From NCBI GenBank assembly GCA_002938255.1, contig PTLB01000003.1:1-34386 (forward strand): 34,386 nt of DNA, read 5' to 3'. Below are positions 1-25,067 of this stretch, in pieces. Within the stretch, counting starts at the first letter, position 1; every line of letters starts with the position of its first letter. The notes beneath the pieces are model-generated. The model had not been told where the DNA came from. It ran no database searches and saw nothing but the letters and a program-made list of their open reading frames with translations. The stretch comes from Alphaproteobacteria bacterium MarineAlpha5_Bin3. GTDB lineage: Bacteria; Pseudomonadota; Alphaproteobacteria; HIMB59; GCA-002718135. A program made the translations under genes and the position numbers.

Positions 1-156
1 GTAAATATTATACTTATTTCTGTAATGTTTTTTAAATATTTTTTGTGGATATATAATTTTATGTTTACCGATAAGTTGATTAATATCCTCCCAATTATGA
101 TATAGTTTTACGGATTTGGCGGCTACAAAAGCTACTCCAAGTGATGAGTGTTTTTT
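1..156 (-). pseudogene. C-terminal fragment of an FGGY-family carbohydrate kinase (runs off the window edge)
   Basis: The minus-strand frame reads KKHSSLGVAFVAAKSVKLYHNWEDINQLIGKHKIIYPQKIFKKHYRNKYNIY, which resembles the FGGY C-terminus (SxLGAAxxA...W...P...Y..Y). An in-frame TGA at 159-157 precedes it, so the upstream part of the gene is missing. Not in the ORF track; family call is by eye. Confidence 0.55.
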
Positions 157-184
157 TCATAAGTTAATATTACCCCATCTAAGA

Positions 185-336
185 CAATTATACCACTTTG
201 AAATCCCCCCTATTTGTATAGTTGCAGACACTCTCTAGTCGCAAATTCGTCAAAAACGAGAAATTACTGCAGACACTTTTGAAAAAGTCTTATATATTGC
301 GACTTGGGGAACATAGTTTAGGAAACAGAGCGCCCC
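185..336 (+). repeat. Non-coding element copy 1 (putative att remnant)
   Basis: Aligns along its length with 1450-1614; the terminal 30 nt (307-336) match 1585-1614 at 29/30. Internal direct repeat TGCAGACACT at 223 and 268. Confidence 0.85.
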
Positions 337-344
337 GCTACAAT

Positions 345-785
345 TTATAGTTCGTAAACTTCCCAATTAGTTTTTTTTGAAACTCTGTCATATAGAGATT
401 TTGCTCTTAGATTATCATTGCGCGTTATCCACCTAACCAAACCCCATCCTTTTTCTTTAGAAATTTTATCTAATTTTAAAATAAGTTTCTCACCAATTTT
501 TAAACCTCTGTAGTCAGGAGAAACAAACAAATCATCTAAAAAACCAATATCCTTTCCTCTTAAAGGACTTGGCATTCTTCTGTAATGAGCAAAGGCAACT
601 ATTTTTTCTTCAAACTCACAAATCAATCCATTAAGTTCATGCTGTTCATCTGTCAACCAACTCCATATGGTATTTAATATAGTCTGTGTCATTTCAACTT
701 TATAAAACTCAGCATAACCGTGATAGAGTTTTTGCCAGTCTTCTTTATCGTTAAGTTTTATGCTTCTAATAAATGTTGTGTCCAT
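345..785 (-). CDS. GNAT-family N-acetyltransferase
   Basis: Acetyl-CoA binding motif LDDLFVSPDYRGLKIG and C-terminal NLRAKSLYD. Start moved from 821 to the ATG at 785 (MDTTFIRS) because the extra codons lie in the repeat element. Confidence 0.9.
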   Translation of the reverse strand: MDTTFIRSIKLNDKEDWQKLYHGYAEFYKVEMTQTILNTIWSWLTDEQHELNGLICEFEEKIVAFAHYRRMPSPLRGKDIGFLDDLFVSPDYRGLKIGEKLILKLDKISKEKGWGLVRWITRNDNLRAKSLYDRVSKKTNWEVYEL

Positions 786-922
786 AAGACAATTTATAGC
801 ATAGCACGAAGTCTCCTGCAAAAGTCCTGCAAAAATATTGATTTCCTTACACGAAGTTTTTGAAAATGTGTTGGTTTTTGTGGTATAAATGACTAGAGGC
901 GAGTAACAGAACGCCCCATTTA
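785..922 (+). repeat. Non-coding element copy 2 (divergent member, putative att remnant)
   Basis: 905-922 AACAGAACGCCCCATTTA is identical to 1602-1619. CACGAAGT at 805 and 850; TCCTGCAAAA at 814 and 825; TAAGACAATT (785-794) is shared with 180-189; TTTTGAAAA lies at the same distance from the core as in copy 1. Confidence 0.7.
793..801 (-). promoter_or_regulatory. Extended -10 promoter for the GNAT gene (probably leaderless)
   Basis: Minus strand TGC-TATAAA ends 7 nt before the ATG at 785; no Shine-Dalgarno. Confidence 0.45.
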
Positions 923-950
923 TGACTAATAATTATTTTAGTATTATAAT
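922..950 (+). promoter_or_regulatory. Sigma70-type promoter for the lipoprotein gene (probably leaderless)
   Basis: ATGACT(922-927)-17 bp-TATAAT(945-950), ending 5 nt before ATG 956; no Shine-Dalgarno. Confidence 0.5.
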
Positions 951-955
951 TAAAT

Positions 956-1429
956 ATGAAAACCAAGTTAATTGCACTGTTTGTTATTTCTACATTTTTA
1001 GTTTCTTGTAATACTACGAGACCAACAGACGTAAAAAAATCTGACACCCAAAAAATTACTTCAATTAAATACGGTAATATTATTTCATCAATGCCTGTAA
1101 AAATTAAAGGTGAAGGTAGCGTAATCGGTGCAACAGCAGGAGGATTAATAGGCGGTCTTCTAGGTACTCAAGTATGCGGTGAAAAAGAAACTGCTGGAAC
1201 TAAATGTCAAGATATTGCGATTGTCTACGGAACGATAGGTGGTGCAACTATTGGATATGTTACAGAAGCATTATTAGGCAATCATGATGGTTATCAATAT
1301 ATTATTGACATTGATAATAACAGTGAAGATGTTGCCATAGTTCAAGGAAATAAAACTCTTTTAGAAAATGGTGGGAGAGTAGTAATTATCTATGGAGATA
1401 CAATCAGAGTTCTACCTTATACAGAATAA
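956..1429 (+). CDS. Outer-membrane lipoprotein with glycine zipper (SlyB/Pcp-like)
   Basis: Signal peptide with lipobox LVSC; two GxxxG-rich segments (GATAGGLIGGLLG, GTIGGATIG); SlyB-like C-terminal IVQ...GGRVVII. Confidence 0.8.
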   Translation: MKTKLIALFVISTFLVSCNTTRPTDVKKSDTQKITSIKYGNIISSMPVKIKGEGSVIGATAGGLIGGLLGTQVCGEKETAGTKCQDIAIVYGTIGGATIGYVTEALLGNHDGYQYIIDIDNNSEDVAIVQGNKTLLENGGRVVIIYGDTIRVLPYTE

Positions 1430-1449
1430 ACTTACCTTGAAATAAATTT

Positions 1450-1619
1450 CAATTATACCTCTTTGAAATCTCCTTATTTGTATAGGTAGCACACAGACAG
1501 AAGTCGCAAAATCATCAAAAACACGAAATCAGAGCACACAGAAAAAGCACACAGGCGCAAAAAACTATTATATTATGTGACATTGGGAACATAGTTTAGG
1601 AAACAGAACGCCCCATTTA
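1450..1619 (+). repeat. Non-coding element copy 3 (putative att remnant)
   Basis: Homologous to 185-336. AGCACACAG at 1488, 1533 and 1546; ends GGGAACATAGTTTAGGAAACAGAACGCCCCATTTA. Confidence 0.85.
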
Positions 1620-1625
1620 AAAAAT

Positions 1626-2261
1626 ATGTCAAAAAAAAAAATAGGATATGATGATGCTTATTCATTAAAGACACCCGAAGATTCCATAAAACTCTACAAA
1701 AAATGGGCACAAGCCTATGATGAAGATTTTGCTTTAAGTTCAAATTATCTTTCACCTGCTAAAATTTGTAGTTTTTTTAATAAACATGCAAGAAATACTG
1801 ATACTCCAATTCTTGATGTTGGTGCTGGAACCGGTTTGGTTGGTGAATGTTTAAATAAAACAGGCAATAAAAAAATCATTGGAATAGATATATCTCCAGA
1901 AATGTTGGAACAAGCAAAATTAAAAGGATGTTATTCTTCCCTAGTGAGTGCTAATGTTACAAAAAAAATTCCATTAAAAAATAATTCTGTTGGAGCAGTT
2001 GTAAGTGCAGGAACTTTTACTCATGGGCATGTGGGACCAGATGCTTTTGATGAACTCTTACGTATTACAAAACCGGGAGGATTATTCGTTTTATCCATTA
2101 ATTCAAAAGTATTTATCAAGGGTGGTTTTCAAGAAAAATTCTCAAGAATTAAAAACAGTATTTCTGTTCCTATTTTTAATGAATTTAAAGCTCATGGTAA
2201 TAATAAAGATGAAAACTTTAGCAAAATAAAAATATTTGCATCTATTTTTCGTAAAAAATGA
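1626..2261 (+). CDS. Class I SAM-dependent methyltransferase
   Basis: Motif I ILDVGAGTG, GIDISPEML, and RITKPGG. Confidence 0.9.
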   Translation: MSKKKIGYDDAYSLKTPEDSIKLYKKWAQAYDEDFALSSNYLSPAKICSFFNKHARNTDTPILDVGAGTGLVGECLNKTGNKKIIGIDISPEMLEQAKLKGCYSSLVSANVTKKIPLKNNSVGAVVSAGTFTHGHVGPDAFDELLRITKPGGLFVLSINSKVFIKGGFQEKFSRIKNSISVPIFNEFKAHGNNKDENFSKIKIFASIFRKK

Positions 2262-2292
2262 AAAATGGAAATTAATACAACAAACTGTTAAT

Positions 2293-3234
2293 TTAATTTT
2301 CCTGTAAACCCAACAAATGTTCTTTAATACTTTCCGATAGTGCCAATAAATCGTAACCTCCTTCCAAAAAAGATATAATTCTTCCTTGGCAATGTATATT
2401 TGCAATTTCTATAATTTTTTTTGTTAAATCATAATAATCTTTTGATTCTAAATTAATATGCGCCAAAGGATCTCTTTTATGCGCATCAAAACCAGCGGAT
2501 ATTAATATTATTTCAGGTCTAAATTTATCTATATTATTCAAAATTTTATTTTCTAATATCTTTATAAAATCCTTTCCTTCTGTTCCTGCTAGAATTGGTG
2601 CATTGAAAATATTTCCCATTCCTTTTTCCTGTTCTGAACCTGTGCCTGGAAATAATGGGAATTCGTGTATAGAACCATAAGCAACTGTTTCGTCTTTAAA
2701 GAAAATTTCTTGCGTGCCATTTCCATGATGAACATCGAAATCAATAATCGCAATCTTATTTATTTCATATTTGCTTTGTAAATACCTTGCAGTAACTGCA
2801 ACATTATTTACAAAACAAAATCCATTTGCTCTAACAGTTTCTGCGTGATGACCTGGTGGCCGAACAGCGCAAAATATTCTTTTTTCATTTTCCCTAATAA
2901 GGCTGTCTGCGGCAGCAATACCAGCTCCACAAGATCTTAATATTGCTTTTTTACTTTTGGGACATAAAAGTGTATCGGCATATGGCTCTTTTTCTATTCC
3001 CGTTAATCCAGAATTTGGAATTAATGAAAAAATATTGTTTATATGTGTTGATGGATGTACCAGATAAATATTACGAACATCTGCTAATGGTGCATTTTTA
3101 ATATCTATATCAATACTGCTTATATTTTGAATGGATTTAAGAATAATCTGTACACGTTCTTTTTTTTCTGGGTGATTTGGACCATTATCTTTGAGTAAGC
3201 AGTCTGAGTGTGTGTAAACAATTATTTTTTTCAT
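2293..3234 (-). CDS. Zn-dependent histone deacetylase-family (AcuC/APAH-like) amidohydrolase
   Basis: HPE, RPPGHHA, GFC, DFDVHHGNGTQ, FPGTG, SAGFDAH and LEGGY motifs; GGAG just upstream. Confidence 0.95.
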   Translation of the reverse strand: MKKIIVYTHSDCLLKDNGPNHPEKKERVQIILKSIQNISSIDIDIKNAPLADVRNIYLVHPSTHINNIFSLIPNSGLTGIEKEPYADTLLCPKSKKAILRSCGAGIAAADSLIRENEKRIFCAVRPPGHHAETVRANGFCFVNNVAVTARYLQSKYEINKIAIIDFDVHHGNGTQEIFFKDETVAYGSIHEFPLFPGTGSEQEKGMGNIFNAPILAGTEGKDFIKILENKILNNIDKFRPEIILISAGFDAHKRDPLAHINLESKDYYDLTKKIIEIANIHCQGRIISFLEGGYDLLALSESIKEHLLGLQEN

Positions 3235-3387
3235 TACTCCATCTTACATTTATTTTATTAGTTTCAAAATTCGTTATCCGTATTTGAATAGCTAGTACAC
3301 ACTTTAACTGAATACTCTTACGAAAAACTGTATATACTATGTTTAAGTGATGTTTCTTCTAATTACAGAACATAGCAATATTTAAAA

Positions 3388-3846
3388 ATGAAAATCCACT
3401 ATTCTCAAATCTTAAAAAAAAACATGCTAAATGTTTTTCGCGATGTTCTAAAAAATATAGAAGTAAATGGTTTGCAAGAAGGCCATCATCTTTATATATC
3501 CTTTAAAACAGATAATAAAAAAGTTGTTATTCCAAATTGGTTAAAGGAAAAACATCCAAAAGAAATCACGATAGTCATTCAATATGAATATTGGAATTTC
3601 AAAGTAAAAAATGACTCATTCAATATTGGGCTATCATTTAATGACATAAATGCAGACATATCTGTTCCATTTGATTCTGTAATCTCTTTTGCCGATCCAT
3701 ATGCAAATTTTGGATTAAAACTTATAAATGAAGAAATTAATAAAAAATTAAGTGACAAAAAACCAAAAAGAAAAAAATCTGTTATTAAAAAAAATAAAGA
3801 CAAAGATAATATAATCGAATTTCAAAAGTTTAAAAAATTAAGATAA
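3388..3846 (+). CDS. sspB: ClpXP protease specificity-enhancing factor SspB (alphaproteobacterial type)
   Basis: HHLYISFKT, P.EITIVIQ, LSFN, FADP and a C-terminal NIIEFQKFKK tail, typical of alpha-SspB. Confidence 0.9.
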   Translation: MKIHYSQILKKNMLNVFRDVLKNIEVNGLQEGHHLYISFKTDNKKVVIPNWLKEKHPKEITIVIQYEYWNFKVKNDSFNIGLSFNDINADISVPFDSVISFADPYANFGLKLINEEINKKLSDKKPKRKKSVIKKNKDKDNIIEFQKFKKLR

Positions 3847-4467
3847 ATATTTAGAATTCACAACTTTGCCAGATTCATAAGTTATAATAAATGGGCTGCC
3901 AGTTGGAATCTCTATTTTTGAAATTTCTTCTGCTTTATACAAGCCAACTTGTATCATCGATGCTCGCAGTGAATTGCCATGGGCTGCTATTAACACATCT
4001 TGACCCTCATTGATTTTAGGTTCTATAAAGTTGATAAAATATGGCTTAACTCTTGTAACAACATTTTCCAGACTTTCTCCTCCAGGAGGAGAAACATCGT
4101 ACGAACGGCGCCATATGCGAACTTGCTCTTTACCGTATTTATTAGCAGTCTCTTCTTTATTAAATCCAACCAAATCTCCGTAATCCCTCTCATTTAAACT
4201 TTGGTCTTTGGTCATAAGAAGTTGACCGTCACTCCAAAATTGTTCCAAGTTCATTTCTTTAATTGCTAACTCAGCCGTTTTGGTGGCTCTTTGCAAAACA
4301 CTACTGAAAATTACATCAATATGCACTTTATTTTTTTTCATTAATTGACCAGCGACTTTGGCCTCTGCAATGCCCTGTTCGGTCAATGGTACATCTTCCC
4401 ATCCAGTAAATCGATTTTCAAGATTCCATTGACTTTGGCCATGGCGTAAAAGGATAAGGTTATTCAT
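3838..4467 (-). CDS. gpmA: 2,3-bisphosphoglycerate-dependent phosphoglycerate mutase
   Basis: LRHGQSQWN, RFTGW, LNERDYG, WRRSYD and AHGNSLR. Confidence 0.95.
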   Translation of the reverse strand: MNNLILLRHGQSQWNLENRFTGWEDVPLTEQGIAEAKVAGQLMKKNKVHIDVIFSSVLQRATKTAELAIKEMNLEQFWSDGQLLMTKDQSLNERDYGDLVGFNKEETANKYGKEQVRIWRRSYDVSPPGGESLENVVTRVKPYFINFIEPKINEGQDVLIAAHGNSLRASMIQVGLYKAEEISKIEIPTGSPFIITYESGKVVNSKYLS

Positions 4468-4536
4468 AAAATAAATATTTTTAATTCAATGATTGAGTTT
4501 ATGTTATACAAAAATATAATTAAATTAATACAAAAA

Positions 4537-5922
4537 ATGAAAAAAAAATACAGAATAGAATTTGATAGTTTGGGAAGCAAAAAAATAGACTCTACCCAAC
4601 TATGGGGAGCACAAACACAGCGATCACTTGAAAATTTCAAAATTGGTAATGAAAAAATTCCAAAAGAAATAATCATTGCATTTGGTCATCAGAAAAAAGC
4701 TGCCGCTCTTGCCAATATAAAAATTGGCAAATTAAATTCTAAAATCGGAAAAGCGATCATTGATGCCTGTAATCAAATTATCAATTTAAAGCTTATTGAT
4801 GAATTTCCACTTTCTATCTGGCAAACAGGTTCAGGAACGCAAACCAATATGAATGCTAATGAAGTTATTAGTAATTATGCTATTAAAAAGTTGAAAGGGA
4901 AAATTGGATCTAAAAAACCAGTCCATCCTAATGATCATGTTAATCTATCCCAATCTTCTAATGATACTTTTCCAACAGTAATGCACATAACTTGCAATGA
5001 ATTGTTACAAGATAAATTAAACATATCATTACGTAATTTGATTAAAGAATTAAAATCTAAGTCACAAAAATTCAACAGAATTATAAAAATTGGTCGAACA
5101 CATACTCAAGACGCTATACCTTTAACATTAGGACAGGTATTTTCAGGATATTTAGAACAAATAAAAAATAATCAAAAAAGAATATTACAAGCTCAAAAAG
5201 AACTGCTTTATTTAGCCCAAGGGGGAACAGCTGTTGGAACAGGTATGAATGCTCCTAAAAATTTTGATAAAATTTTTTGTAAATACTTATCATTATTAAC
5301 TAAAAGCAAATATTTTCCTGCCCCTAATAAATTTGAATCCATTGCATCGCACGATCCCATGGTAAACCTATCTGGAAGTCTTAATACTCTTGCTACTTCT
5401 CTTTTAAAAATATCAAATGATTTACGTTTTTTAGCATCAGGTCCACGTTCAGGTTTAGGAGAGTTAAAGTTGCCTGAAAACGAACCTGGATCTTCTATAA
5501 TGCCTGGTAAAGTAAATCCAACACAAATTGAGGCGTTATCAATGGTGTGCACCCAAGTAATTGGAAATCACACAACAATTACTATTGCTGGATCGCAAGG
5601 TCACTTTGAACTAAATGCTTTTAAACCAGTGATTATTTTTAATAATTTACAATCAATACATTTACTTTCTGATTCAATTGACAGTTTTATTAAATACTGT
5701 CTTCGAGGTTTAAAGCCAGATGTTTATCGAATAAAACAACATTTAGATAATTCTTTAATGCTTGTCACTGCTTTGAATGAACATATAGGGTATGACAATG
5801 CTGCAAAAATTGCAAAAAAAGCTTTCAAAGAAAACTTAACACTTAAAGAAGCAGCTATAAAACTTGGGATGATAGAAGCAAATGAGTTTGATAGGATAGT
5901 TCAACCAAAAAAAATGATTTAG
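4537..5922 (+). CDS. fumC: Class II fumarate hydratase
   Basis: WGAQTQRS, QTGSGTQTNMNANEV and signature GSSIMPGKVNP. Start placed at MKKKYRIEFD (4537) rather than 4489. Confidence 0.97.
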   Translation: MKKKYRIEFDSLGSKKIDSTQLWGAQTQRSLENFKIGNEKIPKEIIIAFGHQKKAAALANIKIGKLNSKIGKAIIDACNQIINLKLIDEFPLSIWQTGSGTQTNMNANEVISNYAIKKLKGKIGSKKPVHPNDHVNLSQSSNDTFPTVMHITCNELLQDKLNISLRNLIKELKSKSQKFNRIIKIGRTHTQDAIPLTLGQVFSGYLEQIKNNQKRILQAQKELLYLAQGGTAVGTGMNAPKNFDKIFCKYLSLLTKSKYFPAPNKFESIASHDPMVNLSGSLNTLATSLLKISNDLRFLASGPRSGLGELKLPENEPGSSIMPGKVNPTQIEALSMVCTQVIGNHTTITIAGSQGHFELNAFKPVIIFNNLQSIHLLSDSIDSFIKYCLRGLKPDVYRIKQHLDNSLMLVTALNEHIGYDNAAKIAKKAFKENLTLKEAAIKLGMIEANEFDRIVQPKKMI

Positions 5923-5929
5923 GTTTAGA

Positions 5930-6802
5930 TTAAATTATCTTGAAATTAGATTTATCTGAAAATATTTTACGCAAAAGTTGAATGTTTAAAAAATGGCCTG
6001 ATTTTTTTCCATAGAAATAACCTTGAATAGGTTTGCCAGCTAAGTATAAATCTCCTATTGAATCCAGCATCTTATGTCGAACAAACTCATCTTCAAAACG
6101 TAAACCTTCTTTATTTAAAATTTTTTTGTCCCCAACTACAACGGCATTTTCAAGTGAACCTCCGAGAGCAAATCCGTTAGCTCTCAAATAATCTACATCT
6201 TTTTCAAATCCAAAAGTTCTCGCAAAAGAAATATCTTTCTTATAGTTGCCATTAACTAATTGAAGTTGGCATGCCTGTTTATTAACTAAATGACTTGCAA
6301 ATTCTATTTCAAAATTAATTGCAAATTGTTTGTCAGGAAGAATTTTTGTAAAACTATCACCTTTGGTAACTACAACTTCTTTTTCTATCAAAATTATTTG
6401 GCGATCAATCTCTTGTTTTACTATACCTTTACTTTCAAATAATTCTACAAAAGGTAATGAACTACCATCCATGATGGGAACTTCAGGTCCATCAATCAGT
6501 ATATTTACATTATCAATATGCATACCTGATAGAGCACTCATTAAATGCTCTATAGTAGATACTGAAGCTCCTTCTTTATTTGCAATAGTTGTACATAGGT
6601 TCGTTGAAGTAACATTTGACCATAATGCATTAATGATATTGCTATTTTTTTGATCAGTTCTTATAAATCTTATTCCATTGTTAATTTCTGCTGGCTCAAT
6701 ATTTATAGCTACTTTCTTTCCTGAATGTAAGCCTACACCTGATAAAGATATGCTCGAATTTATTGTTTGCTGTTTTTTAGATGTATTTGAGCTTGCAATC
6801 AT
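5930..6802 (-). CDS. lpxC: UDP-3-O-acyl-N-acetylglucosamine deacetylase
   Basis: GVGLHSG, TIEHLMSAL, EVPIMDGS, ARTFGF and RHKMLD; follows ftsZ. ATG at 6802 preferred over the GTG inside the hairpin. Confidence 0.97.
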   Translation of the reverse strand: MIASSNTSKKQQTINSSISLSGVGLHSGKKVAINIEPAEINNGIRFIRTDQKNSNIINALWSNVTSTNLCTTIANKEGASVSTIEHLMSALSGMHIDNVNILIDGPEVPIMDGSSLPFVELFESKGIVKQEIDRQIILIEKEVVVTKGDSFTKILPDKQFAINFEIEFASHLVNKQACQLQLVNGNYKKDISFARTFGFEKDVDYLRANGFALGGSLENAVVVGDKKILNKEGLRFEDEFVRHKMLDSIGDLYLAGKPIQGYFYGKKSGHFLNIQLLRKIFSDKSNFKII

Positions 6803-6808
6803 AAATAT

Positions 6809-6836
6809 AAAAAAAGTGCTGTCCTGCAGCACTTTT
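6809..6836 (-). terminator. Intrinsic terminator-like hairpin downstream of ftsZ
   Basis: AAAAGTGCTG-5 nt loop-CAGCACTTTT perfect inverted repeat; the 6-bp GC-rich stem is followed by T7 on the minus strand. Confidence 0.7.
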
Positions 6837-24657: not shown

Positions 24658-24700
24658 ATACTAGGTTAATTACAGAGTGTTCTATAAATGTTCACGATAT

Positions 24701-25043
24701 AGATGGTGCATAAGCCGGGTTCTGTAAATTTATAAAAAAAATTTGATGATCATTAATCTAGAGCAAGTGTCACCACTTGCTTCAAGCAGCCTACCCGAGT
24801 AACTTAACTGGAAATTAATTGTTACTCCTATTTGGCCTTGCTCCTAAAAGGGTTTTCACTGCCATAATTGTTACCAATTATGCGGTGAGCTCTTACCTCA
24901 CCTTTTCACCCTTACCTTCAAAAAGGCGGTATGTTTTCTGTTGCACTTTCCCTAAGCTTGCACTTGCCAGGTATTACCTGGTTTTATTTTCCAGCGGAGC
25001 CCGGACTTTCCTCTTGATTGCTCAAGCGATCATCGCACCATCT
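24701..25043 (-). ncRNA. rnpB: RNase P RNA (type A)
   Basis: Minus strand has GAGGAAAGTCCGGGCTCC near the 5' end, GAAAGTGCAACAGAAA internally and ACAGAACCCGGCTTA near the 3' end; ends AGATGGTGC/GCACCATCT form P1. Confidence 0.97.
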
Positions 25044-25067
25044 TAATAAGAAAATAATGGAAAAAAA

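Follow-up and report, generated by a model that had tools for sequence, protein, structure and literature searches.

Copy-specific direct repeats as probable arm-type integrase sites of integrase-less cassettes at the tmRNA gene of a marine alphaproteobacterium

Introduction

Streamlined marine bacteria have large flexible gene pools, yet mobile elements are hardly ever recognised in them. The mechanism of flexible-gene flux is called unresolved in recent work on related lineages (including PMC11796062). The literature presents the tycheposons of Prochlorococcus as islands at tRNA or transfer-messenger RNA (tmRNA) genes, with partial repeats and tandem elements (bioRxiv 10.1101/2020.12.28.424599), and describes SAR11 islands at tRNA/tmRNA genes that also carry partial repeats (PMC11796062). 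Here we analyse a stretch of 34,386 nucleotides from Alphaproteobacteria bacterium MarineAlpha5_Bin3 (contig PTLB01000003.1, positions 1 to 34,386; hereafter the window), which starts with the first base of its contig. Near this start, three copies of a 140-bp block each carry a short direct repeat of their own, at constant spacing, ahead of a core ending in CGCCCC. We conclude that the repeats are probably arm-type integrase sites, belonging to lambda-type attachment (att) cassettes that lack an integrase gene (int-less), lie at the tmRNA gene ssrA and are moved in trans by rare helper integrases.

In phage lambda, the attP site carries arm-type sites P1 and P2 on one arm and P'1-P'3 on the other, and the Int protein is heterobivalent. 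The 3' end of the tmRNA gene is a classic integrase target, and two-piece tmRNA is linked with the Alphaproteobacteria. A precedent for int-less DNA between att sites is offered by the cis-mobilisable elements (CIMEs) of streptococcal integrative and conjugative elements (ICEs), which are presumed to be moved by the integrase of a helper.

Results

An earlier note on this DNA, made from its letters, had drawn attention to the direct repeats and their 45-bp spacing, and every position that it gave was confirmed to the base. Read directly from the window (plus strand), copy 1 carries TGCAGACACT exactly at 223-232 and at 268-277 (-114 and -69 from the core end), copy 2 carries CACGAAGT at 805-812 and 850-857, and copy 3 carries AGCACACAG at 1488-1496, 1533-1541 and 1546-1554 (-127, -82 and -69). 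Units 1 and 2 are spaced by 45 bp in all three copies, and the third unit of copy 3 follows at a further 13 bp. The fixed distance between repeat and core that had been claimed is also borne out: counted back from the end of CGCCCC (336, 917 and 1614), the unit nearest the core begins at 68, 67 and 68 bp, and positions of about -127/-82/-69 recur in relatives, in many sub-classes with differing spacers. In copies 1 and 2, the last letter of TTTTGAAAA (285 and 866) stands 51 bp ahead of the core end. Copy 3 is longer than copy 1 by 13 bp, exactly the extra unit, and its conserved box stands at -112 from the core end as against -99. The units are identical within a copy at 8-10 of 8-10 positions, and the non-conserved flanks have diverged between copies. 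When each 140-bp copy was shuffled by mononucleotides, an equally long exact run at offset 45 arose in 2, 21 and 2 per 20000 shuffles for copies 1, 2 and 3, respectively. Because such runs are rare, and because the core pattern matches three times in the window against 0.01 expected, a chance origin of the repeats is excluded.

The core, which ends in CGCCCC, proved to be the 3'-terminal 13 nt (AACAGARCGCCCC) of ssrA, the two-piece tmRNA gene. Outside the window, the 16-nt core pattern occurs nowhere in the MarineAlpha5_Bin3 genome (874 kb, 80% complete). It is present in 93 of 116 family genomes, nearly always in same-strand clusters with copies 0.4-3 kb apart; the reversed pattern, used as a control, gave two matches in total in the 116 genomes. 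These clusters are same-strand arrays of cassettes of 0.4-3.4 kb, directly downstream of ssrA. In most arrays the first core copy closes a two-piece tmRNA gene, circularly permuted, with the tag ANDNRLAL/IAA. ARAGORN recognised a permuted tmRNA in 6/6 loci and in 5/10 loci of a second set, the remaining five of which had been chosen for an integrase linked to a tRNA. Both the permuted tmRNA gene and every cassette end in AACAGAACGCCCC. The features known from tycheposons are thereby present, namely insertion at a tmRNA gene, repetition of part of the gene's 3' end and build-up in tandem.

In relatives the arrays are flanked by FolA-ThyA-Mrp-HflKC-HtrA on one side and by SspB-HisPhos-FumC-LpxC on the other. 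The genes for SspB, His_Phos_1, fumarase and LpxC, this conserved downstream flank, directly follow the array of the window, which is therefore the same ssrA locus. We did not find ssrA itself in the assembly, which is 80% complete; it presumably lies beyond the contig start. The window opens inside the array, so its three copies are the right-hand arms that end three cassettes (all plus strand). Cassette 1 (1..336, by genome placement and core match) is truncated by the contig start and ends with its right arm and core 1, AACAGAGCGCCCC (324..336), a copy of the ssrA 3' end. Cassette 2 (581 bp, 337..917) ends with its right arm and core 2, AACAGAACGCCCC (905..917), and cassette 3 (697 bp, 918..1614) with its right arm and core 3, again AACAGAACGCCCC (1602..1614), the last of the array. 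The cores were assigned by pattern match.

We then compared the arms of 210 distinct elements taken from family genomes, one genome-collection scan and one metagenome scan. Loci in family genomes were found through the core alone; the metagenome search required CAAAAA at 55-85 bp ahead of the core, so that the constant core distance is there partly a product of selection. The class of the window, class C, has 34 members, with a conserved box AGTCGCAAAWTCRTCAAAAAC and the end GGAAACAGAACGCCCC. Its units stand at -127/-82/-69 from the core end, or at -114/-69 in a two-unit form with one 13-bp unit fewer. Unit 1 is identical to unit 2 at 9/10 positions or more, at the 45-bp offset, in 23 of the 34 elements, whereas units of different elements match this closely in 22% of comparisons; none of 10000 permutations reached the observed count (relatedness uncorrected). 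The within-copy covariation that the earlier note had proposed to look for in homologues is thus seen. The class C alleles are related to one another (TGCACACACT, TGCAGACACT, TGCATACACT/GT, AGCATAGAGT, AGCACACAGA, TGCACGAAGT); other sub-classes have units such as CTACGAAG, TCAACGAAG, ACAATGAAG and TCAGTGAAGT or CTATGTACCT. The spacing is conserved in homologues as well: spacings of 45 and 13 bp dominate, and the distance between units 1 and 2 is 44-46 bp across sub-classes whose spacers cannot be aligned. Unrelated spacers with a kept unit distance of 44-46 bp are the best sign that the spacing is probably constrained and not merely inherited.

To look at both ends of an element, we cut 90 distinct complete cassettes from core to core, of which 66 have an exact right-arm repeat of at least 8 nt. 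In 23 of the 66, the right-arm 8-mer is found again on that strand, +25..+110 past the left core, and in 16 cassettes there are two or more left-arm copies. Cross-pairing the arms of different cassettes gave 65/4218 (1.5%), and the reverse complement gave 1/66. The recurrence stands across the cargo, up to 3.4 kb away, and thereby rules out local slippage as the source of the within-copy identity. In class C/T the left-arm units lie at about +47, +59 and +70, with the motif repeated 2-4 times; class I shows a second architecture, in which pairs stand at +57/+68 and at about -165/-154 and one further unit at -50. Such a plan, with the core in the centre and putative arm-type sites to either side, is that of a lambda-type attP. 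The window alleles TGCAGACACT and AGCACACAG occur elsewhere in two-armed cassettes with different cargo (L051, of the same genus, and L087). As a side observation, in class C the sequence after the last left-arm unit (CTCTGAAGTYGCA...) resembles that after right-arm unit 1 (CTCTGAGGTCGCAAA...), and this likeness suggests that a module of unit plus box was duplicated between the arms long ago.

Among the 65 open reading frames (ORFs) of three arrays and their flanks we found no PF00589 protein, and hence no such protein as a candidate IntI beside the arrays (IntI-specific signatures were not searched for). One integrase family has homologues at E <= 1e-30 in 25 of the 187 genomes of the order. 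An integrase lies within an ssrA array in two of the 187, G006 and G050; the remaining homologues of the family adjoin tRNA genes. The G006 integrase (336-340 aa) starts about 90 bp past the ssrA core, with GCCGAAGC twice directly upstream of int, right after ssrA. That of G050 is split (181 + 142 aa) within a 3.4-kb element. Directly ahead of int, this element has two copies of GTGCCGTTT with an 11-bp period, and its other arm has three. Int-less cassettes with the G006 and G050 alleles exist (L009, L130). The L009 cassette keeps a 53-aa remnant of an integrase N-terminus behind a tandem pair, so an autonomous element that loses int can become a cassette. Such a tandem pair, with an 11-bp period, stands just before the int start codon in 28 of 30 loci (two loci being the same gene); its sequence differs by integrase lineage and is shared by close relatives, e.g. 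TGTCACAA. The MarineAlpha5_Bin3 genome contains a single lambda-type integrase, L044 (G000:C73, 10-1023, minus strand), at a contig end beside a tRNA gene; it marks another island of this integrase family, one linked to a tRNA.

The G006 integrase was modelled with AlphaFold2 from 28 sequences, with a mean predicted local distance difference test score of 90.2. The model places strands at 2-7, 10-15 and 23-27 and a helix at 30-45 ahead of the core-binding and catalytic domains, and Foldseek aligned it over about 350 columns to full-length lambda Int (1z1b, 1z1g) and also to the Tn1549 integrase. The protein models as a lambda-Int-like fold that includes a beta-beta-beta-alpha N-terminal domain of the arm-binding kind.

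Two further possibilities were considered. Against a viral origin, the class C pattern had no match in viral contigs, the best 80 of at least 541 viral integrase relatives lacked both the ssrA core and the class C motif pair, and 22 viral loci with tandem GCACACACT had no integrase homologue within 3 kb. Most family genomes also carry one copy of a conserved tyrosine recombinase of 352-365 aa (e.g. L334 1441-2499, G080:C3), which was not found in the MarineAlpha5_Bin3 genome with the query used. As a resident integrase of the arrays it is doubtful: PF00589 is the only domain recognised, with no N-terminal Pfam domain, and the gene does not adjoin ssrA. It could be a single Xer-type resolvase or a resident recombinase.

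Positions 1-3400 of the window are near-identical (0.97-0.98 of sampled words) in marine metagenomes, namely in at least 14 runs of at least 9 studies, and the source sample may itself be among these runs. Contigs of four runs were aligned to the window at 90% likeness. The interior of cassette 3 (913-1482) had about zero summed depth in three of the four, with both sides covered; depth holes in contig runs were not by themselves counted as absence. One contig (depth 9.6, shorter side 58 letters) joins 904 to 1602 and skips 697 bp, and 18 letters at the joint, the repeated core plus ATTTA, fit either side. Where cassette 3 is missing, then, it is exactly the core-to-core unit that is gone. Other low-depth joints were not used, their sides being 20-30 letters at 90% likeness and possibly derived from relatives or repeats.

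Several further features of the window can be placed around the repeats. Upstream of unit 1 in copy 1, the class C alignment defines a conserved box (TTTGAAATC...TATTTGTATAG) at 194..222, plus strand. Between units 1 and 2, near-invariant alignment columns mark a spacer box, AGTCGCAAATTCGTCAAAAAC at 237..257 in copy 1 and AGTCGCAAAATCATCAAAAAC at 1502..1522 in copy 3, both on the plus strand. A Bacteroidetes-type or sigma-70 promoter at the upstream box was discarded by eye, the spacing being wrong, and no convincing IHF consensus was seen by eye in the spacer. A target-site duplication of a 35-bp insert was ruled out because the motif has at least three copies and stands in the other arm too. 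By ORF annotation, the cargo of cassette 2 is a GNAT acetyltransferase gene (345-821, minus strand) and that of cassette 3 a glycine-zipper lipoprotein-like gene (956-1429). The flank beyond core 3 (1626..6832, by annotation against relatives) holds a methyltransferase, a histone-deacetylase-family gene, SspB, His_Phos_1, fumarase and LpxC. The methyltransferase (1626-2261) is a cassette gene in G034 (L036 11061-11699), where a bare armless core, GCACCAGGCAACAGAACGCCCC, follows it; in the window no core stands behind it. Cargo in relatives (L034, L036, L040, L043, L051) consists mainly of small secreted or lipoprotein-like proteins with a common signal peptide, MKTLLTLFVLFFSS..., together with zinc-ribbon/DUF805 membrane proteins and HNH and EEP nucleases, and lies mostly on the strand opposite to ssrA. 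A contig from a Marinimicrobia bin (L075/L076) carries a near-identical cassette 1 arm and the following cassette, and is likely the same alphaproteobacterial lineage binned elsewhere.

RNA structure was considered as well, and its outcome leaves the earlier reading of the repeats as protein-binding sites in place. An Rfam search of the window had no match at the repeats, its sole match being a full-length RNase P RNA of bacterial class A (24695-25045, minus strand, 307.6 bits). Six single-strand folds, covering both strands, had z values of +0.58 to -0.97 and were no more stable than shuffles, and RNAalifold predicted 0 pairs for 32 class C elements on the plus strand. One inverted repeat, AGTCGCA/TGCGACT, pairs in 80% of cells, with covariation not beyond shuffles. 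An alternative pairing through a downstream complement of the repeat was rejected by eye as inconsistent between alleles.

Discussion

The window repeats would be the right-hand arms, with core, of lambda-type attachment sites that end three small int-less cassettes. Strand exchange would take place at the 13-nt core, the copy of the ssrA 3' end, since the cassette boundaries run core to core. The direct repeats of 8-10 bp would be arm-type sites for a heterobivalent tyrosine integrase that comes from elsewhere and acts in trans, its N-terminal domain sitting on the arms while its other domains hold the core; the positions -127/-82/-69 on the right and +47/+59/+70 on the left would be the geometry for folding the arms onto the core. 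Each motif allele may represent a specificity group matched to one integrase lineage. This account, which we consider probable as a whole, draws on the anatomy of the sites, the ssrA context, the concordance of motifs on the two arms, the specific motifs adjacent to int, the lambda-Int-like fold of the model and the presence or absence of one cassette. From it we infer binding, mobilisation in trans and activity at the present day.

A number of observations weigh against this account. Unit 1 differs from unit 2 or is missing in 11 of the 34 class C elements, and no left-arm recurrence was found in 43 of the 66 cassettes. The two complete cassettes of the window (2 and 3) have no left-arm sites on ORF and arm scanning, and neither does a near-identical relative of cassette 1. 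No integrase with class C/T alleles (GCACACACT, GCAGACACT, GCACACAG and ACGAAG types) was found in the 187 genomes of the order, in the 3-kb flanks of 79 metagenome loci or in viral contigs, and several alleles occur together in single arrays of genomes that have no ssrA integrase. The lambda-type integrase of the MarineAlpha5_Bin3 genome carries a different tandem motif, GGTTGCA, before its start, and the Pfam Arm-DNA-bind_4 match in this homologue is below the cut-off (E 0.031). The near-identity of the array across metagenome runs speaks for stability, and the precise loss of cassette 3 could stem from recombination across the 18-bp repeat, from which contigs cannot separate site-specific excision.

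The earlier note had read the repeats as sites of tyrosine integrases that co-evolve with distinct recombinase variants, and this reading holds for the most part. The ssrA core, the two-arm motifs in 23 of 66 cassettes, the G050 element, the integrase-specific tandem pairs at 28 of 30 int loci and the structural model favour it; for the alleles of the window no matching integrase was found. It had further suggested that the sites are, or recently were, functional. "Recently" fits the window better, because its two complete cassettes are without left-arm sites: with the right arm intact, the left-arm sites missing and no cognate integrase in the genome, the window cassettes look half-decayed.

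The best-surviving alternative carries this decay to its end. The repeats would descend from arm sites of once-autonomous ssrA elements and would now be inert, and strain variation would come about by homologous recombination or deletion across cores. The bare left arms of cassettes 2 and 3, the lack of an ssrA-type integrase in the 80% complete genome, the near-identical array in at least 14 runs of at least 9 studies and the rarity of ssrA integrases (2/187 genomes, one split) are as such relics would have them. Yet the units of the window are still identical within copies while the flanks have diverged between copies, the gap left where cassette 3 is absent runs exactly from core to core, and in a genome that is only 80% complete a helper could be missed or be transient. 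We regard inert relics as rather doubtful, although clearly the strongest of the competing explanations.

Alternatively, the repeats might bind another protein, such as an excisionase or directionality factor, a repressor of int, or the replication initiator of an excised circle. Tandem pairs right before int start codons occupy the place of an operator, and direct repeats at a period of 11-13 bp are typical of iterons. However, the cassettes encode no Rep, Xis or repressor to match dozens of alleles, their cargo being lipoproteins, zinc-ribbon membrane proteins, nucleases and the like; moreover the motif varies with integrase lineage, and sites at fixed distances on both sides of the core follow the plan of lambda attP. 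A role in binding such a protein is improbable. A structured non-coding RNA of which the repeats are working parts (for instance a riboswitch, or a guide or small RNA) is very improbable: a conserved 140-nt block in intergenic DNA and the one inverted repeat would suit it, but neither Rfam, the folds nor the plus-strand alignment detected a structure, the single helix shows no covariation beyond shuffles, and the repeats are direct, not complementary, with a motif that recurs up to 3.4 kb off across cargo.

If the repeats are arm-type sites of int-less cassettes, as we think probable, the locus offers a model that is defined at the level of sequence and open to bench tests: cassettes of single genes with a full lambda-type att architecture, a common core and arm alleles that track integrase lineages. 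Matched pairs of arm site and N-terminal domain would be a natural series for the evolution of arm specificity in integrases. The cassettes suggest how streamlined marine alphaproteobacterial genomes swap single genes. We propose more tentatively, as possible but less likely than not, that an integron-like capture system has arisen from lambda-type attP sites in place of attC, in which dozens of miniature int-less cassettes, each with a complete att site of two arms, share one tmRNA core and the arm motif is the address read by the N-terminal domain of a rare, transient helper, the only one to move that cassette. If so, this would be a concrete and testable way for single genes to flow through streamlined ocean bacteria reputed to have no mobile elements. 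In the main texts of the open full-text literature we found neither arm-type repeat alleles nor such a cassette architecture described.

Lambda attP resembles these sites in having a core common to the bacterial site and, as far as the two-armed cassettes of relatives show, short direct repeats on both arms at fixed distances, with a tandem triple on one arm, and lambda Int resembles the modelled integrase of relatives in its beta-sheet N-terminal domain followed by core-binding and catalytic domains. It differs in that the att sites described here are borne by int-less cassettes of 0.4-3.4 kb, with many motif alleles for one core, and that the target is the 3' end of a two-piece tmRNA gene; no sites for accessory bending proteins were identified in them. 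Tycheposons and SAR11 islands, as far as the accessible text of those papers describes them, likewise belong to streamlined marine genomes, with tyrosine integrases that target tRNA/tmRNA genes and tandem sets bounded by partial RNA-gene repeats. Arm-type repeats, their alleles and their geometry are not described in that text, and the units presented here are mostly single-gene and int-less and come from another host lineage. A tycheposon has its own tyrosine or serine recombinase and often replication genes, whereas most cassettes at this locus have neither, an integrase being present only in G006 and G050 (split) and, as a remnant, in G009. With integron cassettes the arrays share same-strand order, promoter-poor one-gene units, a terminal recombination site and a single chromosomal address. 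In contrast, integron attC consists of imperfect inverted repeats (R''-L''...L'-R') acting as a hairpin, whereas our sites have direct repeats and 0 predicted pairs and would be double-stranded, with lambda-type arms. CIMEs too are int-less, bounded by att sites, and in tandem with or derived from an integrase-bearing element. They are, however, few, large and tied to one ICE family, whereas the ssrA arrays comprise dozens of small cassettes with many arm alleles.

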